Of a DNA stretch of 64,000 nt, positions 16,766-28,950 are shown one piece after another. The position numbers were made by a program, and so were the translations under genes. How positions within the stretch are numbered: position 1 is the first letter of the stretch; every line of letters starts with the position of its first letter. Under the pieces are notes generated by a model, which saw only the letters and a program-made list of their open reading frames with translations, ran no database searches and was not told where the DNA came from. The DNA comes from an uncultured delta proteobacterium (GTDB taxonomy: Bacteria; Desulfobacterota; Syntrophorhabdia; Syntrophorhabdales; WCHB1-27). Location: assembly GCA_963810935.1 (NCBI GenBank), contig CAWEPK010000008.1, positions 1-64,000 of the forward strand, read 5' to 3'.

Positions 16766-17788
16766 CTAATTCCCCTTTACGGCGGCTGTCATCGCCTTGA
16801 TATGCGCTATGGGAGTAGAAGTGCTCAGGCCGCACGCGGGGGAGATTATATCCACATCGTCCCGAACCAGTTTCCTTGCCGTCTTTGCGATCTTGCCGGC
16901 AGGGCCGAATTCCAAAAGGTACGTGCTGACGTTCCCCATCGTTGTCAGTCGCGGGTATGTCTGCTTCAAGCCGCGCAGGCTCACCATGGCATCTGTACTG
17001 ACTGCATCGGCTCCTATCGCGGGGATAAGATGCGCGACAGCCTTCATGTCCCCGCAGATATGAACTATGACGGGCGTGTCTGCATCACGTACGGCTTGCA
17101 CGATCTTTTTCAGATACCTGACCGCGTACTCTTCAAAGGTCTTCGGCCCGAGTATCTCTCCTGAGGCGGTAGGGTCGGCTATGCAGACGGCGTCCGCTCC
17201 GCTCTCGACAAGCGACCTCGCATACGCGATCAGGAAGCGGCTTACGTGGTCGATTATCCGGTGCGAGTTTTCCCTGTCCTTCCTCAGCTCCTTAAGGAAC
17301 GCGGAAGGGTCCACCAGTGAGGCGGCGGCCGTGACCGGCCCCGTGATGTTCCCGATGACGGGGATATCCGGATATCTGCGGGACAGGATGCCCGCCGCCC
17401 GGACGACCGTACGAATGCGACTTGAATTCAGCAGATCGTTAATATCCTTGCACACCACTTTCGAGACGGAGGGAAATTTTTCTTTCGCGACCTTCGGCTC
17501 GCAGGTGAGGCTGCCGTAATCGATTTCGCTCCCCATGGCCTGCGCCTCGGCGGTGACGTCGAAAGGAACACCCAGGTTCTCGAAGCCCGTCTGCTCGTGT
17601 ACATCGTAGGCAAGCTCCGCCATGAGCGTGCTGTCAGTGTGGGCTTCGGGCAAACGGTGGCCCGTCTTTCTCATGATGTCCACCACGGCAGCGTTCATCA
17701 TGCCGCCGGCGCAGATTACGGGCGGCCGGTCCGGTGTTTTCTTCGCCAGGACCGCCATCAACCGCTCTTTGGGGTTCAATGCAGCCAT
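16766..17788 (-). CDS. MtaA/CmuA-type methylcobamide methyltransferase (UroD family)
   Basis: VHICG and SPACGL Zn ligands; GPVTAA. Confidence 0.85.
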   Translation of the reverse strand: MAALNPKERLMAVLAKKTPDRPPVICAGGMMNAAVVDIMRKTGHRLPEAHTDSTLMAELAYDVHEQTGFENLGVPFDVTAEAQAMGSEIDYGSLTCEPKVAKEKFPSVSKVVCKDINDLLNSSRIRTVVRAAGILSRRYPDIPVIGNITGPVTAAASLVDPSAFLKELRKDRENSHRIIDHVSRFLIAYARSLVESGADAVCIADPTASGEILGPKTFEEYAVRYLKKIVQAVRDADTPVIVHICGDMKAVAHLIPAIGADAVSTDAMVSLRGLKQTYPRLTTMGNVSTYLLEFGPAGKIAKTARKLVRDDVDIISPACGLSTSTPIAHIKAMTAAVKGN

Positions 17789-17790
17789 GA

Positions 17791-18858
17791 TTATTTTTTT
17801 GCCACCAGCGGCGAATGCGCCGGGTCTCCACCTATCTCCGCGGCCGTATCGAGCATGGCCCGTATGTTCTCGAAAGGGGTGTCGATAGGCAGGCTGCAGC
17901 CGGAACAGATCACATAGCCCTTGGGGTTGTCATGGGCCTGCCTGACGCATTGGATAGTCGCTTTGCGCACGTCTTTCGGCGTCCCCGCGTACATCACGCC
18001 GGAAGGGTCAACGTTCCCCGTAATGCGCACCCTGTCGCCCACCCGCTCCTTGCACTCGGAAAGGCTCGCGACGTTATCGATGCTGAGGCAGTCCGCCCCT
18101 GTGTCGGCCATCCCCTCCCAAATCTTGTCCGTCTTGCCGCATATATGGAGCGTGACCGGTTTGCCCCTGGAGTGTACATGGGCGATGAGCCGCTTAAGGT
18201 ACGGGAATGAATACTCCATGAAATGTTTGGGACTGACGATGGTGGTGGACGACATGGGCTCGGAAACGGTCGGCGTTAGCCCTATATCGATAAAGGCGTC
18301 GGCGTACCGGACGGCCGTCTCAAAAGAAACGGCGCACAGCTTGTGCACCGCTTCGGGGTCTCTGGCTAGGAGCCTTGACAGTTTCTCGACGCCGATCAGG
18401 AAAAACGCGTTCGTGAATGGACCGACGACGCCGCCCGAGCAAGACACTTCCGCCCCCAGTGCATCGATGACTATTTTGGCGGCTTCGAGGTGGGAAGGAA
18501 GGCGGCCGTCATGGTATGGGTCTGCCGGCTGAATGTCGTCTATCCCGGCGAGGTCGGTTATGGCGGGCGCTTCCAGGTCGGCCGTGTCGTCTACCGGATA
18601 GCAGACCTTTGCCCCCATGGCCTCCGCCTGGACGTAAAGGTCCGTAAAGGGCCTGACGCCGTCGTATGCGAACATGCGGTAAGCGGCGATGTGGGCTTGT
18701 GCGATCAGTTGTCCGTTGTTCCTGAACTCGGACACCTTACAGCCGATAACCCTTGCTGCGCCGTTCGCGATATTCGGGTTGCAAGGCAGGCGGTCTATCC
18801 TTTCCCCTTTGTTGTAAGCGATCATCCGCTCAAGCGAAGTTATACGGTCTCTATCCAT
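17791..18858 (-). CDS. Second UroD/MtaA-family methyltransferase
   Basis: GPFT, LHICG, GNVDP and CSGCSLP. Confidence 0.85.
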   Translation of the reverse strand: MDRDRITSLERMIAYNKGERIDRLPCNPNIANGAARVIGCKVSEFRNNGQLIAQAHIAAYRMFAYDGVRPFTDLYVQAEAMGAKVCYPVDDTADLEAPAITDLAGIDDIQPADPYHDGRLPSHLEAAKIVIDALGAEVSCSGGVVGPFTNAFFLIGVEKLSRLLARDPEAVHKLCAVSFETAVRYADAFIDIGLTPTVSEPMSSTTIVSPKHFMEYSFPYLKRLIAHVHSRGKPVTLHICGKTDKIWEGMADTGADCLSIDNVASLSECKERVGDRVRITGNVDPSGVMYAGTPKDVRKATIQCVRQAHDNPKGYVICSGCSLPIDTPFENIRAMLDTAAEIGGDPAHSPLVAKK

Positions 18859-19513
18859 TGTCCAAGCCTCCTGTCAGCTTACGGGCCAGCTTCGCCGCGA
18901 GCGATGCGTTTGCGGCATAGCCGTTCGCGCCTATCCGCTCAGCGAATCCTTTCGAGATGGGCCCGCCGCCGACCATCACCCTGACCCGGTCTTTCATGTT
19001 GCCTTTTTTCAGAAGCGCCACGACTTCTTTCATCCCGTTCATCGTAGTCGTCATCAGCGTGGAGAGGGCGATGATCCGTGCGTCCGTCTCTTTCGCCTTT
19101 TCGATAAACGCCCTGGGGGAAACGTCCCTCCCGAGATCGACGACATCGAAGCCTGATGTCTCCAGCATGATCTTCACGAGGTTCTTGCCTATGTCGTGGG
19201 TATCACCTTCAACCACGCCGATGACGACCTTTACCTTGGTCCCGCCGTCATCAACGGGCAGGTGCGACTTGAGGACATCGAGGCCGGCGTACATGGCGTC
19301 GGAGCAAAGCAAGAGCTCCGGTATAAAGTATTCCTCCGCTTCATAGAGCTTACCGGCCCTGTTCATTCCGTCGGATAGACCCTTGTTGATTGCCCGATAG
19401 GCGTCGAGTTTGCCATCTGCCACCGCTCTCGATATTCTCACGGTTTCTTCTTCATCCATATCGAGAACGGCGTCCGAAAGGGATTTATATAAACGTTCTT
19501 TTAGTATTGCCAT
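18851..19513 (-). CDS. Methyltransferase-cognate corrinoid protein
   Basis: GDTHDIGKNLV, STLMTTTM and MVGGGP B12-binding motifs. Confidence 0.92.
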   Translation of the reverse strand: MAILKERLYKSLSDAVLDMDEEETVRISRAVADGKLDAYRAINKGLSDGMNRAGKLYEAEEYFIPELLLCSDAMYAGLDVLKSHLPVDDGGTKVKVVIGVVEGDTHDIGKNLVKIMLETSGFDVVDLGRDVSPRAFIEKAKETDARIIALSTLMTTTMNGMKEVVALLKKGNMKDRVRVMVGGGPISKGFAERIGANGYAANASLAAKLARKLTGGLDNG

Positions 19514-19691
19514 TTATCTTATCTCACAATGTTTTTGTAAACCCCGGATAGTTCCTTTCGCACCTCTTTATGGTGCGGTGTTCCGGCCGTGGCTGAGCAT
19601 CCGCCTTTCCGCAAAGAAAGGCTTCTTCAGCGCTATAGCCGATGTTGGATGAGTTTACGAAAGGAGGAATAAGGTGGGGGGGAAGATCAAG

Positions 19692-19817
19692 CTAGAGGGG
19701 AACGACCGGACGATGAGACACCTCTCCCTCCTTCCGTGACATTTTAAGGCCTACCCTAGGCCTTTCGCGGCCATACGCGACCGCTCACGTGAGAGAAAAG
19801 GGCGCCTGACGAGGCAT
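19692..19817 (-). CDS. Putative selenocysteine leader peptide A (MPRQAPFSLT-U-AVAYGRERPRVGLKMSRKEGEVSHRPVVPL)
   Basis: SD AAAGGAGGTGA; ATG 19817; in-frame TGA 19787-19785; hairpins follow; TAG 19694-19692. Confidence 0.65.
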
Positions 19818-19856
19818 GGTCTCACCTCCTTTACCTTTCAAGTCGAATCGTCCGTA

Positions 19857-19885
19857 ATGCTAAATTAAATATTTCCGTATGTCAA
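19857..19885 (-). promoter_or_regulatory. sigma70 promoter for leader A and the corrinoid operon
   Basis: TTGACA-N17-TAGCAT on the minus strand. Confidence 0.75.
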
Positions 19886-19911
19886 ACGTAATCAAGGCGT
19901 GCGAAAGGTAT

Positions 19912-19941
19912 TTGACTTGCGGACAGGTTCGGGTATAGAGT
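19912..19941 (+). promoter_or_regulatory. sigma70 promoter for leader B and selD
   Basis: TTGACT-N16-TATAGA (or N18-TAGAGT). Confidence 0.55.
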
Positions 19942-19990
19942 TAAGCAGCAACGCGCACTCGCAAGTAAAAATAAACAGTAAAGGTGTGCA

Positions 19991-20095
19991 ATGTTCAAGA
20001 TTTGCGCGTGAATTGAAACAGGGGCGCCGGGTGGCGCGCTTGGCTTCGCCTCCATACGTCGGGTAATGGAGCAGTCTCTCCTCGCGGTCGTTTAA
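19991..20095 (+). CDS. Putative selenocysteine leader peptide B (MFKICA-U-IETGAPGGALGFASIRRVMEQSLLAVV)
   Basis: SD AAAGGTG; ATG 19991; TGA 20009-20011; SECIS-like GCGCC-GGGT-GGCGC with the loop starting at +18; TAA 20093-20095. Confidence 0.65.
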
Positions 20096-20114
20096 CCTTC
20101 CAGGGCTTCTCCTT

Positions 20115-20144
20115 GCGGCCGGCGCATGCCGGCCGTTGTTATTT
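20115..20144 (+). terminator. Attenuator-type terminator in the selD leader
   Basis: GCGGCCGGC-GCAT-GCCGGCCGT followed by TGTTATTT. Confidence 0.6.
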
Positions 20145-20191
20145 GTCCGTCTCAATATAGCAAGGGGCAAAATTCGTTAAAGGAGAGGCAC

Positions 20192-21217
20192 ATGGAAACA
20201 GCACTTACGCAGCACGCCCGTTTCGGGGGGTGCGGGGCGAAGATCGGCCCCGGCGACCTTTCGAACATACTCTGCGGGATCGACATCCCCGAGGACGCCA
20301 ACGTAATCGTCGGTCTCAAAGGCTTCGAGGACGCAGGCGTCTACCGCATCACCGATGAATTGGCCGTCGTCCAGACAGTCGATTTTTTCACGCCTGTCGT
20401 GAACGACCCGTACACGTTCGGCAGGATCGCGGCGGCCAATGCCCTTTCGGACATCTACGCAATGGGCGCGAATCCGGTGACTGCCCTCAACCTCGTTTGT
20501 TTCCCGCCAAAGAAGCTCGATATAAGCATACTGCGCGATATCCTGCGCGGGGGCATCGACAAGGTAAGGGAAGCGGGGGCGAGCCTGCTGGGCGGCCACA
20601 GCGTAGATGACGATGAGGTCAAGTACGGCCTGTCCGTGACGGGCCTTGTACATCCCGACAGGATCGTGAGGAACGAGGGCGCCGGGCCGGGCGACCTGCT
20701 CGTCCTCACGAAGCCGCTGGGTACGGGTATCCTCATAAGCGCCATGAAAGGAAATCAGGTGTCTCCGGAGACGGAGGCGCAGGTGTCGTCCGTCATGGCG
20801 ACGCTTAACAGGCAGGCATCCAAGGCGATGCTCGCAGCGGGCGCCCATGCTGCTACGGACGTGACGGGCTTCGGCCTTGCGGGCCATCTCAAGGAGATGA
20901 TAAAGGAGGACATCGGCGCGGAAATTGACGCCGCAATGCTGCCTTATTTTCCCGAGGCGGAGGGCCTTGCAGCCGCCGGGTTCCTCCCGAGCGGCTTCTA
21001 CAGGAACAGGGATTTTTACTCGCCGTCCGTGGAGTCGGAGGTGGACGGCTTCTTGTTCGACCTGATATTCGACCCCCAGTCATCGGGCGGGCTTCTCATC
21101 GCCCTCGGGGAGGGCGATATGGAGGCTTTCGACAGGGAGGCGAAAGGCCGCTCCGTGGATTACCGGGTGATAGGCCGCTTCACGGACGGGCCGAAAGGGA
21201 AGATACACGTCGCCTGA
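20192..21217 (+). CDS. selD: Selenide, water dikinase (selenophosphate synthetase), Cys form
   Basis: GGCGAKIG (TGC codon), QTVDFFTPVV, AANALSDIYAMG, TDVTGFGLAGHL and DPQSSGGLL. Confidence 0.95.
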   Translation: METALTQHARFGGCGAKIGPGDLSNILCGIDIPEDANVIVGLKGFEDAGVYRITDELAVVQTVDFFTPVVNDPYTFGRIAAANALSDIYAMGANPVTALNLVCFPPKKLDISILRDILRGGIDKVREAGASLLGGHSVDDDEVKYGLSVTGLVHPDRIVRNEGAGPGDLLVLTKPLGTGILISAMKGNQVSPETEAQVSSVMATLNRQASKAMLAAGAHAATDVTGFGLAGHLKEMIKEDIGAEIDAAMLPYFPEAEGLAAAGFLPSGFYRNRDFYSPSVESEVDGFLFDLIFDPQSSGGLLIALGEGDMEAFDREAKGRSVDYRVIGRFTDGPKGKIHVA

Positions 21218-21281: not shown

Positions 21282-21734
21282 ATGAAGGAATTCGAGCCCA
21301 ACATTGTTGCGTATTGTTGCGAGTACTGCGGGTATGCCGCAGCCGACCTTGCCGGCTCCATGCGGATTTCGTATCCCGCCAACGTGAAGATCGTCAAGAT
21401 CCCGTGCACCGGCAGGTTCGACATCATCCACGCACTTAAGGCCTTCGAGTCGGGTGCGGACGGGGTCTTCCTCGTTGGATGTCTCGAAGGGAATTGTCAT
21501 TTCGAGACAGGGAACCTGCGGGCCAAAAAGCGGGTCGAACATCTCCGCCGCCTGCTGGACGAGTGCGGGATAGGCGGCGACCGCTCGGGCATGTACAACA
21601 TGTCTTCCGCAATGGGCAGGCAGTTCGCGGAAGCGGCACGCGAGATCACGGAAAAGGTAAGGTCGCTTGGACCCAACCCTGCGAGGAAAGCGAGGAAGAG
21701 GGGCGGCGAACACACCGTCGGGGCAGCCCTGTAG
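21282..21734 (+). CDS. mvhD: MvhD/FlpD-type [2Fe-2S] hydrogenase delta subunit, Cys form
   Basis: CCEYCGYAAADLAG, PCTGR and GADGVFLVGCLEGNCHF. Confidence 0.9.
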   Translation: MKEFEPNIVAYCCEYCGYAAADLAGSMRISYPANVKIVKIPCTGRFDIIHALKAFESGADGVFLVGCLEGNCHFETGNLRAKKRVEHLRRLLDECGIGGDRSGMYNMSSAMGRQFAEAAREITEKVRSLGPNPARKARKRGGEHTVGAAL

Positions 21735-21782
21735 CCGGAAGCAACCGCCGGGGGCTTATCCTGCCCGGCCCCTTAGCGGCTA

Positions 21783-21811
21783 TTGACTTTGCGCGGGTGC
21801 CCTTATACTAT
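21783..21811 (+). promoter_or_regulatory. sigma70 promoter for leader C
   Basis: TTGACT-N17-TACTAT. Confidence 0.7.
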
Positions 21812-21844
21812 ATATGTGGCCGGTGCAATCGCCGGCAGGATAAA

Positions 21845-21946
21845 ATGATGAAAATATACGGGATAATATTTGTTCCATTGAGCTGAGAAGCGAGCGGGAG
21901 GCCCGTGAGGTCTCCACTTCCGTCCGCTGCCGCTTCACCGCCCTGA
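21845..21946 (+). CDS. Putative selenocysteine leader peptide C (MMKIYGIIFVPLS-U-EASGRPVRSPLPSAAASPP)
   Basis: SD AGGA; TGA 21884-21886; then 10 nt and GGAGGCC-CGTGA-GGTCTCC; second TGA 21944-21946. Confidence 0.7.
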
Positions 21947-21960
21947 CCCTTCTTTTTTGG

Positions 21961-22019
21961 ACCTCTCGGGAAATCCGGGCGCGAAGATGTCGCGGCCGGA
22001 TTTTTTGTCTCCGGGAGGT
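21961..22019 (+). terminator. Terminator / SD-sequestering hairpin upstream of the double-cubane reductase gene
   Basis: AAATCCGG.GCGCGA-AGATG-TCGCG.GCCGGATTTTTT; the outer ACCTCTCGG pairs with CCGGGAGGT, which contains the SD. Confidence 0.7.
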
Positions 22020-22023
22020 TTAA

Positions 22024-23211
22024 ATGCCTGACAGCAATCAAATATATCCATATGCGGTCGAGCCGCTGATCGAGGACGACTACGCAGGCGAGCCGCCCGC
22101 CAAGCGCCTCCTTGCGTATCTTCAGAGCCGGCGCGAGGCCGGCTCTAAGATCGTGGGCATCTACTGCGGCTACGCGCCGGTAGAGATAATCCGCGCCCTC
22201 GGCCTCGTGCCCGCTTCGCTCTGCGCGTTCTCAAACGCGACGATAGAAGCTGCTGAGGCGGTGCTGCCCGCCAACCTTTGTCCCCTTATAAAATCGAGCT
22301 ACGGCTTTATCATGAAAGACGCCTGTCCTTTCTTTGCGGTCTCCGACGCGGTGGTGGCCGAGACGACGTGCGACGGCAAGAAGAAGATGTTCGAGCTGAT
22401 CGCAGACCGCAAGCCGATGCACGTCATGGACCTGCCGCAGGTGCCGGACGAGCCGGAGGCGCTCGACAACTGGACCACGATGATCCGCAAGCTTCAGAGG
22501 TTCCTCGAATCCGTGTTCGGCGGCAAGGCAACCGACGAACAGATAGAGTCTGCCATCCATGACACGAACGAGAAGGCCCGGCGCATGAATGAGATATTCG
22601 AATACGCGGCCCTCAACCCGCCGGTGATAGGGTGGCCCGAGCTTTATGACGCCCTTTTCCTGGGCCAGGGCGCATCGGGGGCCGACCTCGCGCCCATACT
22701 CGACGGGATGCTTGAGAAGCTCGAAAAACGAAAACGCGACGGTTACGTCTATGGGCCGAAAGGCGCGCCCAGGGTCATGGTGACGGGGTGTCCCGTAGGC
22801 GGTGATTCGCTAAAGGTGCTTACGGCGATAGAAGAGGCGGGAGGGGTAGTCGTCGCACTCGATTCATGCTCCGGCATGAAGCCCTACGCGGACTACATCG
22901 AAGAAGGCACGGGGGACCCCGTGCGCGCGATGGCTGCGCGATACCTGAAGGTCCCGTGCTCCTGCATGACGCCGAACAGGCGCCGGCTCACGGAGATTGA
23001 CAGGCTTATCGAAAAGTTCAGGCCGGACGCGGTCGTGGACGTAGTCCTCCAGGGGTGCCATTCGTACAACATAGAATCGATCAAGGTGGGTGAGAGGGTG
23101 CGGACGAACCACGGCCTGCCTTTTCTCACCGTAGTCACCGATTACTCACAGGGCGATATCGGGCAGATGCGGACGCGAATGGAGGCTCTTCTGGAAATGT
23201 GCAGGCAATGA
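22024..23211 (+). CDS. Double-cubane-cluster reductase (2-hydroxyacyl-CoA dehydratase D family)
   Basis: YCGYAP, LCPLIKSSYG, CPFF, ETTCDGKKKM, DSCSG, PCSCMTPN and GCHSY. Confidence 0.85.
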   Translation: MPDSNQIYPYAVEPLIEDDYAGEPPAKRLLAYLQSRREAGSKIVGIYCGYAPVEIIRALGLVPASLCAFSNATIEAAEAVLPANLCPLIKSSYGFIMKDACPFFAVSDAVVAETTCDGKKKMFELIADRKPMHVMDLPQVPDEPEALDNWTTMIRKLQRFLESVFGGKATDEQIESAIHDTNEKARRMNEIFEYAALNPPVIGWPELYDALFLGQGASGADLAPILDGMLEKLEKRKRDGYVYGPKGAPRVMVTGCPVGGDSLKVLTAIEEAGGVVVALDSCSGMKPYADYIEEGTGDPVRAMAARYLKVPCSCMTPNRRRLTEIDRLIEKFRPDAVVDVVLQGCHSYNIESIKVGERVRTNHGLPFLTVVTDYSQGDIGQMRTRMEALLEMCRQ

Positions 23212-24390
23212 AGCCCATCTATTTCGATAATGCGGCTACCTCGTGGCCCAAGCCGCCCGCTGTGATAGAGGCGATGGCGCAGGTTCAACGACGCGGTAGG
23301 GGGCAACCCCGGCCGCTCCGGCCACAGGCTTTCCATCGAGGCGGCCCGCGTAGTCTTCGAGGCGAGGGAGCTTGTGGCGCAGCTTATCGGCGCCCCCGAC
23401 CCGCTCTCTGTCGTTTTCACGAAGAACGCAACGGAGGCGCTCAACTGCGTCCTTCTCGGCCTGCTCAAACCGGGCGACCACGTTGTCACGACGTCCATCG
23501 AGCATAATTCGGTGATGCGGCCCCTGCGCTTTCTCGAAGGGCAGGGCGTAGAGCTTTCCATTGCGCGCTGCTCGCCTGCGGGAGAGCTGGACCCGGAAGA
23601 CGCAGCGGCCTGCATGAGAAAGAATACCCGCGCCGTTGTGGCGACCCACGCCTCCAACGTCACGGGCACATTGCTTCCCATAGAGGAGCTTGCGGAAATC
23701 GCGCACCGGTACGATGCGCTCCTGGTTGCGGACGCTTCCCAGACTGCGGGCTGCGTCCCGATAGACGTTGCCGCATCGGGCATCGACGTCCTCTGTTTTA
23801 CGGGTCACAAGTCCCTCCTAGGTCCGCAGGGGACGGGCGGCTTCTACGTGCGCAAAGGGGTCGAAGAACGCCTTCTCCCGCTCATGCGGGGCGGCACGGG
23901 AAGCGCCTCCGAATCGGAGGAGCAGCCTGAGTTTTTGCCGGACAGGTTCGAGTCGGGCACACCCAACACCATCGGCCTCGCGGGACTCGCCGCAGGCGTC
24001 CGTTTCGTGCTTGACGACGGGGTAGGGCGCATCCGGGAGAGGGAGATCGGCCTGACGCGGCAGTTTCTTGAAGGGGCCGGGGCTATCCTGGGCATAACCG
24101 TTTACGGGCCGCCGGAGGCGGACCGGCGCACAGCCGTCGTCTCCTTCAACCTGAAGGGCGGGAGTCCGTCGGAGCTTGCCTTCGACCTCGACGAGCGTTT
24201 CGCCGTCCTGTGCCGTCCGGGCCTGCATTGCGCCCCTGCCGCGCATCGCACCATAGGCACCTTCCCGCAAGGGGCCGTGCGGTTCAGCTTCGGATTCTAC
24301 ACGACTGCGGATGAGGTCCGCGCCGGGCTGGCCGCTATGGCGCAATTGAGCGCCGAACACTATGCTTCCAAAGGAGGAACTAATGTCTGA
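23208..24390 (+). CDS. Cysteine desulfurase/selenocysteine lyase-family (class V PLP) enzyme; apparent 1-nt insertion near 23280
   Basis: IYFDNAATSWPKP is out of frame with NPGRSGH...EHNSV, TGHKSLLGPQG and RPGLHCAP. Confidence 0.88.
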
Positions 24391-24988
24391 GCTGGTGAAT
24401 GCGAAAGGCCTTGCCTGCCCGGAACCCGTTATACTGGCAAAAAAGGCGCTCGATGCGCATGACGAGGTTACGGTGCTGGTCGATAATGAGATGTCGCTGG
24501 AGAACGTGCAGCGCCTGGCCTCATCTTCGGGATGCGCAGTCGAGACTATAGCAGAGGCGGGCGGGGTCTTCCGTCTCGAAATAAAAAAACAGCAGGGCAA
24601 AGCGACGCCGTGCGCTGCGTCGCCGGGACCCGCGCCTGTGCAGAGCAGCCAGGGGCCTACCATATTCGTTATCGCGTCGAATATCATGGGCTACGGTAAC
24701 GACGACCTGGGCGCGCTCCTGATGAAAGCGTTCATCCATACGGCCGTTGACCTGGAACGCTTACCCGACATGATGATCTTATACAACACGGGTGTTAAGC
24801 TGGCCGCGCCGGATTCAGGCGCGCTCGACGACCTGAAGGCGCTCGAAGAGAAAGGGGTGAAGATACTCGTCTGCGGCACGTGCGTCAATTTCTTTGACCT
24901 GACAGGCAAGATCGGCGCGGGGACCGTCTCCAATATGTACGACATAGCGGGCGCGCTATCGAGTGCGGGCAGAATCGTGAAGCCTTGA
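24383..24988 (+). CDS. yedF: Selenium-metabolism protein YedF (TusA/SirA plus DsrE-like domains)
   Basis: KGLACPEPVI, YNTGVKL, LVCGTC and VSNMYDI. Confidence 0.85.
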   Translation: MSELVNAKGLACPEPVILAKKALDAHDEVTVLVDNEMSLENVQRLASSSGCAVETIAEAGGVFRLEIKKQQGKATPCAASPGPAPVQSSQGPTIFVIASNIMGYGNDDLGALLMKAFIHTAVDLERLPDMMILYNTGVKLAAPDSGALDDLKALEEKGVKILVCGTCVNFFDLTGKIGAGTVSNMYDIAGALSSAGRIVKP

Positions 24989-25224
24989 AGGAAGAGCAGA
25001 AGCAGCGTTACCTGGTTGCCATGTTCGCTTCCGTCAGCATGGTGATGAAGGCGGAAAAGATACTCAAGGCGGCGGGTGTCCCCCACAAGATAATTCCCGT
25101 ACCCAGGAGCATCAGCTCTGACTGCGGGGTCTGCATCCGCTTACTGCCCGAAGACAGGGAAACCGTAGTTGAGGCGCTCGGGGCCGAGGTGCGCGTGAGC
25201 GAGATACGCGAGCTGGAGCGATGA
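24985..25224 (+). CDS. DUF3343-family small Se/S carrier-like protein
   Basis: IPVPRSISSDCG motif; coupled to yedF. Confidence 0.8.
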   Translation: MKEEQKQRYLVAMFASVSMVMKAEKILKAAGVPHKIIPVPRSISSDCGVCIRLLPEDRETVVEALGAEVRVSEIRELER

Positions 25225-25275
25225 GGACTTGCTTATGAGCACAATGGCGTTTGCGTACGCCCGGAACGATAAGCA

Positions 25276-25735
25276 ATGACGCTCGACCTTGTGCGCCGGG
25301 TGGCGCTCTCACCCCGTTTGTATATACCTGTACGGCTCGGCCTTGCCGTTCTTTTTATCTATGCGGGCGCGGTAAAGCTCGCTGACCCGAGGGCGTTTGC
25401 CCGCACCATCTCCCACTACGGCCTCGTACCCGAACCCCTGCTGCCCACCGTTGCAGTGGGGCTGCCGGTAATGAGAGCTGCTCGCCGGTATTGCGCTGTT
25501 GTTAAATCTGGTGCCCGGCCTGCACGCCGTATCCGTCCTTCTTTTGCTCTTTGCCGGCGTCCTCGGCTACGGTTACTTCACCAATATGGATATAGACTGC
25601 GGCTGCTTCGGACAGCAGGAGCTGGCGGAGCACAAAGGCCTCGTTTATGCTTTTTATCGCGACCTCGGGCTTCTCGCAACGGTCGCGTTTCTTCACTGGT
25701 CGCGCATTGCGCGCAGCAGACCCGTTTCAAAATAA
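25276..25735 (+). CDS. MauE/DoxX-family membrane protein; apparent 1-nt insertion near 25473
   Basis: The FIYAGAVKLADP...GLPV frame joins the ELLAGIALL...IDCGCFG frame. Confidence 0.8.
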
Positions 25736-25755
25736 CAGACTGAGGGAGGTTTAAA

Positions 25756-26268
25756 ATGACGTTGAAAAAGACGGTTGTTGCGGCCCTGGTTGTTGCGGGT
25801 ATATTTTGCTTCGCAGGGTCGGGTAAGGCCCTGGCCGCATGGGGAGACAAGGAACTGGAGACGGAAAAAACGGCGGTTGCCTTCCAGCGGGAGGTTGTAA
25901 GGGGCGCATACAAGGTCGTGACGACCGAAGAATTGAAAGGCTGGATCGACCAGAAGAAGGAGATGCTGATCGTCGATACGATGCCCGCCGACAACTTCAA
26001 GAAAGAGCATATACCGGGGGCCGTCAACTTCCCCCTGCCTATCCCCGAAATGAAAGAGATGGACGCAAAGACGAAGGCCGATCTCGAGAAAGTCCTGGGG
26101 CAGAACAAAGACCGGCTGATTGTTTTCTATTGCGGCTTCACGAAATGCACGCGGAGTCATAACGGTGCGATGTGGGCGGTGAAGCTGGGCTACAAGAACG
26201 TTTACAGGCAGCCCGGAGGCATCAAGGCGTGGGATGAGGCGGGGTATCCAGTGGAGAAGTCTAAATAG
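25756..26268 (+). CDS. Exported rhodanese-like sulfur/selenium transferase
   Basis: Signal peptide; HIPGA, FYCGFTKCTRSH and GGIKAW. Confidence 0.88.
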   Translation: MTLKKTVVAALVVAGIFCFAGSGKALAAWGDKELETEKTAVAFQREVVRGAYKVVTTEELKGWIDQKKEMLIVDTMPADNFKKEHIPGAVNFPLPIPEMKEMDAKTKADLEKVLGQNKDRLIVFYCGFTKCTRSHNGAMWAVKLGYKNVYRQPGGIKAWDEAGYPVEKSK

Positions 26269-26281
26269 GCGGAAAGCCCCC

Positions 26282-26968
26282 TCAAGGGTACCATTTCACG
26301 AGCTTCTCCGGGTGGACGCCCGCCAGGTAAAGCACCATGATCGTCCAATTCCGCAGTGTGCATCCGGCAATGCCTTCTTTTTGCCAGCGGCGGGCGGAGG
26401 TCTGCACCTTTTTATCGATTATGCAGATCTTCCCGCCGCGTTTTTTTACCCTGCGCATCAGGTCTACATCTTCCATGATCGGCATGTCGCCGTAGGCGCC
26501 GATGTCCGTAAAGTAGTCGCGGGCTATAAAGATAGCCTGGTCCCCGTAAGGTACGCGCGTCAGGCGCGAGCGCATGCTCGATATCTGCTCGATGACGCGG
26601 AACACGCATCGGCTGTCGCTTATCCCAAGGTCGAACGCCCCGGCCGCGAATTGCCCGTCCGCCATTACCGACGCGACTTTTTCGAGTCCGCCGGCAGGGA
26701 GCGCCGTATCCACGTGGAGGAATAGAAGCACGTCGCCATGCGCGGCAGCGGCCCCGGCGTTCATCTGGGCGGCGCGTCCTTTCGCGGAGACAATGCCGTG
26801 CGCACCGCCCCTGATAGCGCTCACGGTCTCGCCTCCAGGGCTTCCGTCCACCACGATGATCTCTACCGTCCCTTCCGGCGTTTGCGCAGCCTGGGCGGCA
26901 AGGCGGCCTATCGCGTCATTGACTATCGCCTCTTCATGGAAGACGGGGATAATGACGGAGATGCTCAC
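26282..26968 (-). CDS. GT2 glycosyltransferase, rSAM/selenodomain-associated transferase 2 type
   Basis: ISVIIPV, VVDGSP, GRAAQMNAGA, LFLHVD, PYGDQAIF and TSARRW. Confidence 0.85.
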   Translation of the reverse strand: MSISVIIPVFHEEAIVNDAIGRLAAQAAQTPEGTVEIIVVDGSPGGETVSAIRGGAHGIVSAKGRAAQMNAGAAAAHGDVLLFLHVDTALPAGGLEKVASVMADGQFAAGAFDLGISDSRCVFRVIEQISSMRSRLTRVPYGDQAIFIARDYFTDIGAYGDMPIMEDVDLMRRVKKRGGKICIIDKKVQTSARRWQKEGIAGCTLRNWTIMVLYLAGVHPEKLVKWYP

Positions 26969-27645
26969 GGCTTGCCGAGCCTCTCCCTTACGAAATCGAG
27001 GGACGCGAGGACGCCGGACGGCAGATGTTTGTTGCGTTCCCGGAAGGCAAGAAGGTCGTCGTAGACATCGATGTCTCTCCAGACCGGCAGGATATGGACG
27101 CAGAGGCCGTGCCTTTTGAGCACGGCTATTGTCGTGTCGAATACGCCCGGTGCCCCCCATTCTACCCCTGAGAAAGGCGCATCGATCAGGGTCGCTGGCC
27201 GGAAGCCTATGAGGTAGTATCCACCGTCCGCTGCGGGGCCGATGACAACGTCCCGCGTCCGCAATCCCTCGAATGCCTCTTTCAGTAAGACAGATGGGAG
27301 GTCTGGGAAGTCGCTGCCTATGAGGACGGCCCGGGCGCAGCCCGAAAGGGCCTGCGCGAGCGCGGAGAACATCCTCTGTCCGAGGTCGGCCCCGGCCTGG
27401 GGCAGACACGTTATATCATCGCCGAGCCAAGCTGCGACGTCCTCTCGCGCGTCCGGCGGATGGAAGCGGACGAGCGGGGGGTAGCCCGCCTTGCGGGCGG
27501 TTGCCAGGATATCGGAGACACAGGCGCCATAAAAGGCCGCGGCATCGTCGTCGCCTATCTTTCGTGCAAGCCTCGTTTTGACCCGGCCTTTTTCGGGGAG
27601 CCTGACAAAAACGATCAGCCGTTCATCAGATGGCTGGTTTATCAT
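26965..27645 (-). CDS. DUF2064 transferase, rSAM/selenodomain-associated transferase 1 type
   Basis: GRVKTRL, DLGQRM, IGSDFP, GPAADGGYYLIG and DID. Confidence 0.85.
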   Translation of the reverse strand: MINQPSDERLIVFVRLPEKGRVKTRLARKIGDDDAAAFYGACVSDILATARKAGYPPLVRFHPPDAREDVAAWLGDDITCLPQAGADLGQRMFSALAQALSGCARAVLIGSDFPDLPSVLLKEAFEGLRTRDVVIGPAADGGYYLIGFRPATLIDAPFSGVEWGAPGVFDTTIAVLKRHGLCVHILPVWRDIDVYDDLLAFRERNKHLPSGVLASLDFVRERLGKP

Positions 27646-27651
27646 CGGCCC

Positions 27652-28609
27652 TCACGCTGTCTGGCCCTGGCACGAGCTCGCCCGCGCCCGCCGTGCACCC
27701 GTAGCAGTGGTCGCCGACGACGATGCGCCGGGCGGCAAGCGCGCCCGTATCGAAATCGGAGATGTGGTATGGAGCGCCGTGGTTTATCGTCAGGCCGAGG
27801 ACCTGATTGAAGTCGCAGTCGTAGAGGCTGCCGTCCCAGCCTACCGAGACGGTCGATTTGCACATCACGCCGCTCAAACTCGCCGGGTTGAAGGCAGCGA
27901 TAAGACTCTTCATATAATCCTCGTAATTGCCCGATGCGAGAAGATACTCAAGGTAGCGTCCTATGGGCATGTTCGTTATGCAGAAGAGATGGTTGAAGCT
28001 TACCCCGTGACGCTCGGCGAGGACCTGCCTGAAAAGCGCCTCAAGCCCTGCCTGCGATCCGGGGAGATATGCGCCTGCCGGGTTGTGCACGAGATCGAGG
28101 ACCAGTCCGCTGCCCTCCCGCCCGTAGCCGAGGGCGTTGAGACGGGCAATGACTCCGATCAGACCGGTGAAGACGCCTTCACCCCTCTGGCGCTCGGTCA
28201 GCCTGGGATCGACGTGGGGCAGGGAAAGGACGACCTCGATCCCGGTGGCTGCGTAAAGATCGATGAACGGCTCGTATCTCTTTTCCAGAAGGACGACGCC
28301 GTTGCTTCGCACGAGGACGCGCCGCCCGAGGGCGGCACATGCCTGCAAAAAAGGCCGCAGGCCGGGATGCAACTCCGGGCTGCCCCCCGTTATATCGACT
28401 ACGGGGATGTCCTGGCTGCGCACCACTTCGAGGCACTGCTCCATCACCCTATCCGGCATCACTTCCGACCGTTCGGGACCTGCCTGCACGTGGCAATGCC
28501 TGCATTGGAGGTTGCACCGGTAGCCGACGTTCACCTGGAGGACGCCGATGCCCGAGGCCATGATCGGCACCCGCGCCTTGTCCTCGAACGATGGTGAGAC
28601 TTTCGACAT
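27652..28609 (-). CDS. arsS: ArsS-like radical SAM/Cys-rich protein, Cys form; apparent 1-nt insertion near 27680
   Basis: CNLQCRHCH, DITGGSPEL and YDCDFNQ; removing one base restores the C-terminus HCYGCTAGAGSSCQG. Confidence 0.85.
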
Positions 28610-28617
28610 CCTCACTT

Positions 28618-28950
28618 TTACATCTCCTTCTTCCTGACTATCTTCCTCATCTGGGTAGAGTGCGCAAGGACTATACCGGCAGTCATGGCGGCGCCCACGT
28701 GGACGGCCTCCATCATCTCTTCCCTGGATATGCCCAGAGACAGGCAGTGGTTCGTGTACGCGTCGATGCAGTAGGGGCATTTCTGCGTAGTCGCGACTGC
28801 CAGGGCTATAAGGCTCTTTTCTTTCTCGGTCAGGCGTCCCGCTTTCATTGCCTCGCCGTAATAATCAAAATACTTCTCCCCGAGCGCCGGCGCGTACTCA
28901 CCGATATTCGGAAAGTCTTCAAGGTCCTTCGTCTCGTAGTATTCTCCCAT
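28618..28950 (-). CDS. AhpD/CMD-like peroxidase associated with ArsS
   Basis: EKSLIALAVA..QKCPYCIDAY. Confidence 0.85.
   Translation of the reverse strand: MGEYYETKDLEDFPNIGEYAPALGEKYFDYYGEAMKAGRLTEKEKSLIALAVATTQKCPYCIDAYTNHCLSLGISREEMMEAVHVGAAMTAGIVLAHSTQMRKIVRKKEM

Follow-up and report, generated by a model that had tools for sequence, protein, structure and literature searches.

A leader with an in-frame UGA and a SECIS-like hairpin precedes a Cys-type selD operon and may act as a selenocysteine-sensing attenuator

The window, a 64,000-nucleotide stretch of DNA from an uncultured delta proteobacterium, contains a Cys-type selD (selenide, water dikinase) gene on the + strand at 20192..21217; its start is 20192, not 20193. 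The product matches TIGR00476 with 386 bits (cut-off 125) and is classed as a Cys-type SelD by this equivalog match together with a cysteine at the catalytic position. The residue concerned, Cys14 (codon TGC, 20231-20233), corresponds in alignments to the active site of Aquifex SelD (PDB 2yye/2zod) and to the TGA of a second selD in the same genome; the original prediction of TGC at this site is confirmed by both alignments. The second gene (G000:C9:199252-200256), which that prediction had proposed looking for, is 62% identical and has TGA at the catalytic position. A UGA-containing selD is also present in all of the family's genomes that have the Cys form (8/8).

The genes that follow on the + strand (21282..26268) encode a Cys-type MvhD/FlpD-like protein, a double-cubane reductase, an SclA-like class-V lyase, YedF, a Se/S carrier, a MauE-like protein and a rhodanese. 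The lyase gene is split over two frames. The MvhD-like gene has a 73%-identical paralogue with TGA at the Cys position. selD heads this predicted selenium-trafficking operon.

Upstream of selD lies a leader whose parts (19991-20146) can be read directly in the sequence. The architecture originally described, an upstream frame with UGA, a SECIS-like hairpin and a terminator before a Cys-type selD, is found there in that order. Including the flanking elements, a promoter-like site and an SD precede ATG plus five codons plus TGA; two hairpins, the first a GC hairpin, come next, and then an in-frame TAA, a terminator and Cys-type selD. All features are on the + strand. The promoter-like site (19912..19941) consists of TTGACT, an 18-nt spacer and TAGAGT and agrees with the consensus at 9 of 12 positions. 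The selD operon has no other candidate promoter; a + strand scan for promoter-like sites between the terminator and selD found none.

The leader frame has its own SD, AAAGGTG (19980..19986, read from sequence), and runs from ATG (19991-19993) through MFKICA to the proposed sensing codon, TGA (20009-20011; frame 19991..20011). If the TGA is decoded, the frame extends over 34 codons (19991..20095) to a TAA at 20093-20095. The SECIS-like hairpin (20019..20042) has an upper stem of GCGCC (20024-28) and GGCGC (20033-37), a lower stem of 20019-22 and 20039-42, and a GGGT loop (20029-20032) which begins 18 nt past the TGA. Hairpin 2 (20046..20075) has the core CTCCAT (20050-55) paired with ATGGAG (20066-71), and its loop carries a strand of the proposed antiterminator. 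The stretch at 20076-20115 is C-rich.

The predicted intrinsic terminator (20115..20146) lies between the leader frame and the first structural gene. Its stem (20115-20136) has nine pairs, eight of them G-C, with the loop GCAT, and is directly followed by TGTTATTTGT, a T-rich run at 20137-46. Terminator-like sites are not enriched in a 2-kb scan (2 found vs 2.6 expected). A third hairpin (20143..20170), present in the MFE fold, lies between the terminator and the selD SD region, AAGGAGAGGC (20180..20189); relatives retain a hairpin at this position with other sequence. An Rfam search of 19500-20400 with E up to 10 gave three chance-level matches, the best with E 0.43. No RNA run was among the nine runs listed as containing the locus.

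Sixteen distinct copies of the leader were collected from metagenomes and from the order, in which 7 of 96 genomes carry it. Ten of 37 metagenome pattern matches are leaders, eight of them distinct. A pattern scan of genome contigs gave 23 loci, including five true leaders, all in genomes already counted; the other 18 were rejected, ten because they matched just in part at E up to 1, and eight because they gave no match. Searching the order with sensor model R2 gave no additional leaders. In a phylum sample of 151 genomes the same model gave four weak matches, none of which is a leader: two consist of the hairpin only, one has its TGA out of frame and one has no hairpin. All 16 copies have ATG plus five codons plus TGA, a purine-rich GG-containing stretch upstream of the ATG, and a hairpin loop from 18 nt past the TGA. 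Several alignment and fold counts cover 14 or 15 of the 16, with denominators as given; TTGACTT and TAnAGT, for example, are aligned in 13/14. Conservation over 16 distinct sequences places the leader far beyond chance.

The downstream genes are all Cys-type: selD in 15 cases and the MvhD-like gene in one (16/16). The latter belongs to the complete genome G087, in which a second leader precedes the Cys-type MvhD-like gene. UGA-containing paralogues are present in every leader-carrying genome (7/7). A selenium-independent backup SelD under Sec-dependent feedback, as first suggested, fits this distribution, the co-occurrence of both selD forms in the family and the Cys/UGA pair of MvhD-like genes.

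The upper stem of the SECIS-like hairpin is paired in 14/14 sequences, and eight of these carry a G-C to A-U double change. Both the 18-nt distance and the G-rich loop are those of the hairpin behind the TGA in the genome's own Sec-selD. A 3' stem-loop with a G-rich apical loop at fixed distance is found in 16/16 leaders, and the reading frame continues past the UGA, as in bacterial SECIS elements; the assignment is made on these features and on the match to Sec-selD in spacing and loop. The element resembles an fdhF-type SECIS in the position of its hairpin immediately 3' of an in-frame UGA, in its loop at the Sec-selD distance and in the continuing frame. Unlike fdhF, the element sits in a leader rather than an enzyme gene, and its product would be a 34-residue peptide that shows no sequence conservation. 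The hairpin behaves like a SECIS; SelB binding and Sec insertion are putative. The genome carries selA, selB matches (spread over three frames of the assembly) and tRNA-Sec. Scanning the whole genome for a TGA followed by a hairpin returned 62 candidates, most of them noise in a GC-rich genome; three TGA genes found by homology were used instead.

In contrast to the peptide, the frame past the UGA is conserved. An open frame 0 is found in 14/14 sequences, against 5/14 for the +1 frame and 3/14 for the +2 frame. Thirteen leaders have a read-through frame of 34 codons and three have one of 35, and the stop is TAA or TAG in all 16. The sole indel within it is of 3 nt; indels directly outside are of 1-2 nt. 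There are 12 different N-terminal hexapeptides among the 16 leaders, and peptide conservation is confined to residues imposed by the two hairpins. The diverged copy L109 retains exactly 34 codons with a different peptide, wholly so after APGGA. Per-position variability shows a weak third-position excess (0.80 vs 0.49 and 0.60). Each leader (16/16) is a short frame with its own SD and start codon and contains one in-frame UGA with a SECIS-like hairpin as the codon for the sensed amino acid, which is probably decoded as Sec.

Hairpin 2 is paired in 97% of cells, with one two-sided change, A-U to G-C in four sequences, and is found in the RNAalifold consensus. Its loop and 5' arm are complementary to the 5' arm and loop of the terminator, and the pairing runs on into an anti-SD stretch. 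The proposed antiterminator has a 5' strand at 20053..20076, in which CATACGTCGG pairs with 20119-28 and GGAGCAGTC with 20104-12, and a 3' strand at 20104..20128, made up of the anti-SD GCTTCTCCTT (20105-14) and the terminator 5' arm and loop. It is seen in the consensus fold of transcripts ending at the terminator loop and is transient in the MFE trajectory of 11/14 sequences. Its two parts are paired in 88% and 84.5% of cells (slid controls 31-52%); the structure was derived from the same sequences, and these figures measure conserved complementarity. Two-sided compensatory changes were found in 0/22 of its pairs. The double change of hairpin 2 is tolerated in the antiterminator too.

A different antiterminator had been proposed originally, formed by an arm of the SECIS-like hairpin (20024-30) and the terminator (20119-25). 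GCGCCGG at 20024-30 and CCGGCGC at 20119-25 are indeed exact reverse complements, but the match is perfect only in the window: 8/14 relatives have GCACCGG, which gives an A.C mismatch. The G-to-A change is compensated within the SECIS hairpin, not in the terminator. In partition-function folds with three ribosome footprints this pairing reaches at most 1.4 expected pairs in 14/14 sequences. It was rejected, and the earlier interpretation as a whole is partly supported.

The terminator hairpin is retained in 16/16 leaders. A U-run of at least six in eight follows it in 10/16 and is absent in 6/16, with L061 and L042 judged by eye. The anti-SD can pair with the selD SD (20180-89) in 89% of cells. 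The full-length MFE structure is the OFF fold in 15/15 selD leaders. For L109, in which the analogue of hairpin 2 has only 4 bp, the naked full-length MFE is the long hairpin with the SD free.

Folding of incomplete transcripts was followed through the antiterminator core (S3, 20053-62) and the terminator 5' arm and loop (S5, 20119-28). While the terminator is incomplete, at least 6.6 of 10 S3:S5 pairs are expected in 11/15 sequences. Along nested paths, conversion of hairpin 2 into the antiterminator faces a barrier of ~10-20 kcal/mol in 10/14 sequences and ~0-3 in 4/14 at the last length tested. When the terminator 3' arm is blocked in full-length RNA, the antiterminator is not obtained; this is explained by anti-SD:SD pairing, which wins. 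With a ribosome modelled at the UGA of the window sequence, two of the three footprint sizes favour hairpin 2 at the expense of the antiterminator. In L008, L014 and L044, modelling a ribosome at the stop moves the equilibrium away from the antiterminator and towards the terminator; the reverse shift is never clear. As long as the terminator 3' arm is missing, S3:S5 remains favoured in 11/15 sequences even when the ribosome sits at the stop; blocking of this pairing would require steric hindrance or timing.

These parts, their conservation and their alternative pairings are observed, and a mechanism can be proposed from them. The frame can be completed only with Sec insertion and stands before a selenium-free copy of SelD; the ribosome therefore probably reports selenium supply and switches the backup operon. 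We propose a leader-peptide attenuator that senses UGA/Sec, in which read-through turns the operon off and release at the UGA turns it on; we put the probability of this reading at roughly 55%. Transcription would start near 19945, from the conserved promoter. A ribosome initiating at the ATG at 19991 would reach the UGA at codon 7, with the SECIS at the spacing of the organism's real selenoprotein genes. With SelB and Sec-tRNA(Sec) available, the UGA would be decoded and the ribosome would translate 27 further codons, through hairpin 2, to the TAA at 20093. There it would sit over the long antiterminator hairpin (20053-76 : 20104-28), covering its loop and inner part. On either side of the ribosome footprint, hairpin 2 and the terminator (20115-36) would then be free to form, and transcription would end. 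In escaped transcripts the anti-SD (20105-14) would hide the selD ribosome-binding site.

When Sec-tRNA is scarce, release factor would terminate translation at the UGA and leave the distal leader ribosome-free. The antiterminator could then take up the terminator 5' arm and the anti-SD, and Cys-type selD and the selenium-trafficking operon would be expressed. Ribosome, SelB and SECIS would together form a selenium sensor in cis, which turns on Cys-type backup enzymes and selenium-scavenging genes when Sec cannot be inserted; the odds for this are slightly better than even. Termination at the leader terminator is predicted, and the direction of the switch (on when Sec-tRNA falls) is plausible. 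In favour of this direction are the shift caused by a ribosome at the stop in three leaders, the SD-free naked fold of L109, the placement of all leaders before Cys-type genes alongside UGA paralogues, and the second leader of G087. Weighing against the reading are the 0/22 two-sided changes in the antiterminator, the barrier out of hairpin 2, the preference for hairpin 2 with a ribosome at the UGA of the window sequence, the persistence of S3:S5 with one at the stop, the OFF fold of all full-length selD leaders, the missing U-runs and the selB matches in three frames. Unmasking of the SD by the terminating ribosome was judged unlikely, as the stop is at least 9 nt before the first anti-SD pair, set against the usual size of a ribosome footprint. 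Rho-dependent control via 20076-20115 was also considered.

The same sensor could work with the opposite sign. The naked leader might terminate by default, since hairpin 2 forms first and a barrier separates it from the antiterminator. Without selenium, hairpin 2 would lock the antiterminator strand and the operon would be off; with selenium, a read-through ribosome would melt hairpin 2 and the freed strand would take the emerging terminator arm, which would turn the operon on. Consistent with this, hairpin 2 exceeds all other elements in conservation (97% paired), the barrier is ~10-20 kcal/mol in 10/14 sequences, and S3:S5 is favoured in 11/15 when a ribosome occupies the stop before the terminator 3' arm is made. 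Sec insertion is inefficient in E. coli; repression by read-through would consequently be limited, and an ON switch is better suited to low-efficiency insertion. In addition, SelD has no substrate when selenium is absent. However, this sign leaves unexplained why 16/16 leaders precede Cys-type genes in genomes with UGA forms. The inner half of the antiterminator cannot form where a ribosome occupies the stop, and such a ribosome never clearly raises the antiterminator. L109, with a hairpin-2 analogue of just 4 bp, is already SD-free in its naked MFE. The sign is also contrary to that of amino-acid attenuators. It is likewise contrary to selAB control (PMC13449736). On balance it is unlikely, although it retains a real chance of being correct.

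An operator that involves no decoding is improbable. Here the UGA would be the plain stop of a six-codon frame and the hairpin would bind SelB (with or without Sec-tRNA), another factor or a ligand, as in the 5'-UTR of E. coli selAB. The original work on the selAB element is reportedly that of Thanbichler and Boeck (2002). The hairpin of the selD leader is SECIS-like, and repression by SelB through such an element is known: according to PMC13449736, SelB with GTP and Sec-tRNA represses selAB from an element that is 3 nt away from the selA SD, lacks a decoded UGA and blocks initiation. As in selAB (PMC13449736), the operon belongs to the selenocysteine pathway and has a SECIS-type hairpin in its leader, which would report Sec-tRNA/SelB status and give negative feedback. 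In contrast to selAB, whose type of operator is adjacent to the SD with no decoded UGA before it, the selD hairpin follows the in-frame UGA of a translated leader and lies ~140 nt upstream of the SD; the 27-codon open extension and the terminator are conserved as well. Against such an operator, the frame after the UGA is open for exactly 27-28 codons in 16/16 leaders with a conserved TAA/TAG, even in diverged sequence, and no Rfam family matched.

An independent gene for a 34-residue selenopeptide, merely beside selD, would account for the full anatomy (promoter, SD, frame with UGA and SECIS, stop and terminator) and for the weak third-position excess (0.80 vs 0.49 and 0.60), but is highly improbable given a peptide conserved only where the hairpins force residues (12 hexapeptides in 16 leaders, L109 fully different after APGGA), the lack of a promoter-like site between terminator and selD, a conserved anti-SD that pairs with the selD SD, and a conserved terminator loop complementary to hairpin 2.

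The proposed attenuator, with read-through as the off signal, most resembles those of amino-acid operons (trpL, hisL, leuL and pheL type), in which ribosome position on a translated leader selects antiterminator or terminator. Both have a short translated leader 5' of an operon that makes a precursor of the sensed aminoacyl-tRNA; a choice between mutually exclusive antiterminator and terminator would be common to both and so, under the main reading, would negative feedback. Unlike the trpL type, the selD leader would sense a single UGA which depends on a SECIS hairpin and SelB, and shortage would lead to release at the codon, not stalling. For its 5' strand the proposed antiterminator would use an upstream hairpin, both its arms and its loop; the 3' strand includes an anti-SD, and the U-run is absent in 6/16 copies. 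Literature searches turned up no leader or attenuator based on a Sec codon.

A Sec/Cys isoenzyme switch is known from Methanococcus. PMC11097638 describes increased Cys isoforms and yedE in M. maripaludis under selenium starvation, and a LysR-type repressor, HrsM; the selenium sensor is stated there as unknown. The resemblance lies in Cys isoforms that go up without selenium, including a VhuD/VhcD pair related to the second gene of the selD operon. The Methanococcus switch (PMC11097638) is archaeal, protein-mediated and acts at promoters, whereas the sensor proposed for selD is the decoding event itself, in cis.

If correct, the main reading would bring the 21st amino acid within the reach of classical attenuation, and the attenuator family would gain a member that depends on recoding. 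The decoding event would be the sensor, with UGA and SECIS as the sole conserved coding feature of the leader; this would answer how bacteria sense selenium status, an open question. It would also explain how selenoprotein-rich organisms escape the bootstrapping problem of a SelD that itself requires Sec. The leader could then serve as an annotation marker for selenium-starvation regulons.

Lastly, a G at -10, a pyrimidine at -1 and a G at +1 are found around 20083/84, 11-12 nt past hairpin 2; speculatively, this matches the consensus of a pause site.

The leader upstream of the Cys-type selD (19991-20146) most likely acts as a sensor of Sec decoding (probability about 0.85). A promoter-like site, TTGACT-18-TAGAGT, lies on the plus strand at 19912-41; the promoter-like site search found no second such site on this strand before selD, so the leader must belong to the selD transcript. 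An SD, AAAGGTG (19980-86), precedes a short frame consisting of ATG (19991), five further codons (MFKICA) and TGA (20009-11). Downstream on the same strand are a SECIS-like GC hairpin with a GGGT loop (20019-42), hairpin 2 (CTCCAT/ATGGAG, 20046-75), an in-frame TAA which ends the read-through frame (20093-95), a pyrimidine stretch, GCTTCTCCTT, which is the anti-SD (20105-14), and a nine-pair terminator found by terminator search and followed by TGTTATTTGT (20115-36). Hairpin 3 separates the terminator from the selD SD, AAGGAGAGGC (20180-89). The selD gene (plus strand) starts at ATG 20192, one base from the start originally proposed, and its identity is clear (TIGR00476, 386 bits; cut-off 125). 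The original prediction of TGC at the catalytic position is borne out: Cys14 (20231-33) aligns with the active-site position of Aquifex SelD. The leader has zero family matches in Rfam, and a full-text literature search found no description of a Sec-codon leader or attenuator of this kind; PMC1794560 gave no hit for a word beginning 'regulat'.

The set of 16 distinct leader sequences includes both leaders of G087, a complete genome of another family. All 16 have ATG, five codons and TGA, and in all 16 the hairpin loop begins 18 nt past the TGA; the N-terminal hexapeptide is not fixed (12 different versions). Thirteen leaders have a read-through frame of 34 codons and three one of 35, ending in TAA or TAG (n=16). 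Past the TGA, all 14 sequences examined keep frame 0 open, compared with 5/14 and 3/14 for the other frames; the sole indel within the frame is 3 nt. Every one of the 14 aligned sequences preserves pairing in the upper stem of the SECIS-like hairpin, eight of them with a G-C to A-U double change.

The window's own genome uses selenocysteine: selA scores above its cut-off. The original prediction looked to a second, UGA-containing selD; one is present (62% identity). Its TGA falls exactly on the catalytic position and is followed by a hairpin whose GGG loop has the same position as in the leader. TGA also occupies the CCEY-C position in a 73%-identical paralogue of the operon's MvhD-like protein; in two UGA-containing MvhD paralogues the loops contain GG and sit a few bases farther from the TGA. 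Matches to selB (C5:224288-226169, outside the window) are spread over three reading frames (profile positions 1-168, 175-368 and 496-580); this reflects either assembly indel errors or a broken selB. ARAGORN finds three tRNA-Sec genes (C4:30323-30418, C6:4921-5016 and C11:126660-126755), which could be repeats, contamination (estimated at 7%) or real copies. One of them sits at the extreme end of contig C4.

In the consensus fold of an alignment ending at the terminator loop, hairpin 2 contributes its loop and upper 5' arm (CAUACGUCGG, 20053-62), which pair with CCGGCGYAUG (20119-28), the terminator 5' arm and loop. An inner helix joins GGAGCAGUC (20068-76) to GGCUUCUCC in the anti-SD (20104-12), and encloses a 27-nt loop (20077-20103) containing the final codons and stop of the read-through frame. 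This antiterminator would explain two oddities, the conserved hairpin-2 loop and the conserved terminator loop. Across the 14-sequence alignment, 88% of cells are paired in the outer helix and 84.5% in the inner helix, versus 31-52% in slid controls; the values for hairpin 2 and for the anti-SD with the selD SD are 97% and 89%. Since the structure was derived from those same sequences, its support is conserved complementarity rather than covariation proof; no two-sided changes occur in the antiterminator among the 14 sequences. The lone double change in hairpin 2 (A-U to G-C, four sequences) still fits the antiterminator, as G.U and C-G. The antiterminator appears transiently in 11/14 single-sequence folding trajectories, and 11 of 15 naked pre-terminator transcripts have at least 6.6 of 10 expected pairs between its core (20053-62) and the terminator 5' arm and loop in single-sequence folds. 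The originally predicted antiterminator, the SECIS-like 5' arm with the terminator 5' arm (20024-30 with 20119-25), has an A.C mismatch in 8/14 sequences and exceeds 1.4 expected pairs in none of the 14; it was rejected. In one clade (L008, L061, L062 and L042), the 6-codon frame itself holds CAUACGUAC, a repeat of the antiterminator core complementary to the terminator loop, which competes for the terminator in naked folds.

Weighing the points for and against each direction, we therefore consider a negative sign, in which Sec read-through turns the operon off, about twice as probable as the opposite, in which read-through turns it on. The translated extension would pass through the antiterminator 5' strand and end mid-loop. 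The ribosome footprint is about -15 to +15 nt; on these sizes a terminating ribosome would fit precisely into the space from hairpin 2 to the terminator, and would be incompatible with the inner helix. With a ribosome set on the stop codon, the balance moves from antiterminator towards terminator in L008, L014 and L044, and in no case clearly in reverse. In L109, the second G087 leader, the fold with a free SD is already the naked full-length MFE. All leaders precede Cys-type genes, with the Sec form encoded in the same genome. Amino-acid attenuators work by negative feedback. Negative feedback is also described for E. coli selAB control (PMC13449736) and for the Cys-isoform response of Methanococcus (PMC11097638).

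Other points speak against the negative sign. Hairpin 2 forms first, and the nested-path barrier from it to the antiterminator, at the last length tested, is about 10-20 kcal/mol in 10/14 sequences and about 0-3 kcal/mol in the remaining four; these values cover nested paths only, with no loop-capture pseudoknot. On thermodynamics alone, core pairing before terminator completion would persist even with a ribosome at the stop. All 15 selD leaders have the OFF fold (terminator plus masked selD SD) as their full-length MFE; in the window the antiterminator fold lies 12.8 kcal/mol above it, and the barrier is about 21 kcal/mol. For the antiterminator, the window's leader is a marginal case, since its terminator loop carries C at a position that is U in 13 of 14 sequences.

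G087 has one leader before Cys-selD, and also a UGA-selD. L109 is diverged and precedes a Cys-type MvhD-like gene (L109/L122, G087:C1:2684600-2692600) which has two UGA paralogues and is followed by genes for a 2Fe-2S protein (Fer2), a xanthine-dehydrogenase-family molybdenum hydroxylase and a class-V aminotransferase. L109 retains ATG, five codons and TGA, the hairpin spacing, exactly 34 codons, the anti-SD and a long hairpin with the stop codon in its loop. Its peptide past APGGA is unrelated to the other leaders, and it has no U-run.

Leader carriers are Syntrophorhabdales and 'delta proteobacterium' MAGs. Five of 61 genomes (the window's own counted) show the leader in a DNA search, and six of 22 family genomes with a covariance model from five sequences; order-wide, this model matches 8/96 genomes, one by the terminator part only. 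Pattern scans gave 23 loci in genome contigs (five true leaders, all from genomes already known) and 37 in metagenome contigs (10 full-length leaders, eight distinct). Among the 22 family genomes, eight have this Cys-selD (74-100% identity) plus UGA-selD, nine have UGA-selD alone and two have UGA-selD plus a more distant Cys form; in one each, the distant form is the only one found, selD matches are broken, or selD has no match. The leader is present in six of the eight. In G004 and G021, the DNA upstream of Cys-selD differs and the leader is absent. The G004 locus (L082, G004:C2:144703-148713) has lost it; the recognisable remnant is hairpin 3 to SD only, behind the stop codon of another gene. 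In G013, G016 and G018 a more distant Cys-type selD (L105, L097 and L106; 55-59% identity) lies directly 3' of a gene for a double-cubane reductase, so these two genes are also found side by side where the leader is absent.

In the window, selD is followed by genes for a Cys-type MvhD/FlpD-like protein, a double-cubane reductase, an SclA-like lyase and YedF; the operon further contains a Se/S carrier, a MauE-like protein and a rhodanese. The SclA-like class-V lyase gene is in two frames (23199-23507 and 23374-24390), which could reflect a frameshift or an assembly indel. Upstream of the leader, a corrinoid protein gene (MtbC/MtgC-like) and two MtaA/CmuA-family methyltransferase genes (16766-19513, minus strand) are divergent from it. 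Directly beyond the selenium operon, at 26282-28780 (minus strand), are genes for a family-2 glycosyltransferase and a radical-SAM/DUF3641 protein; this pair may have a connection with the sugar chemistry of selenium or arsenic.
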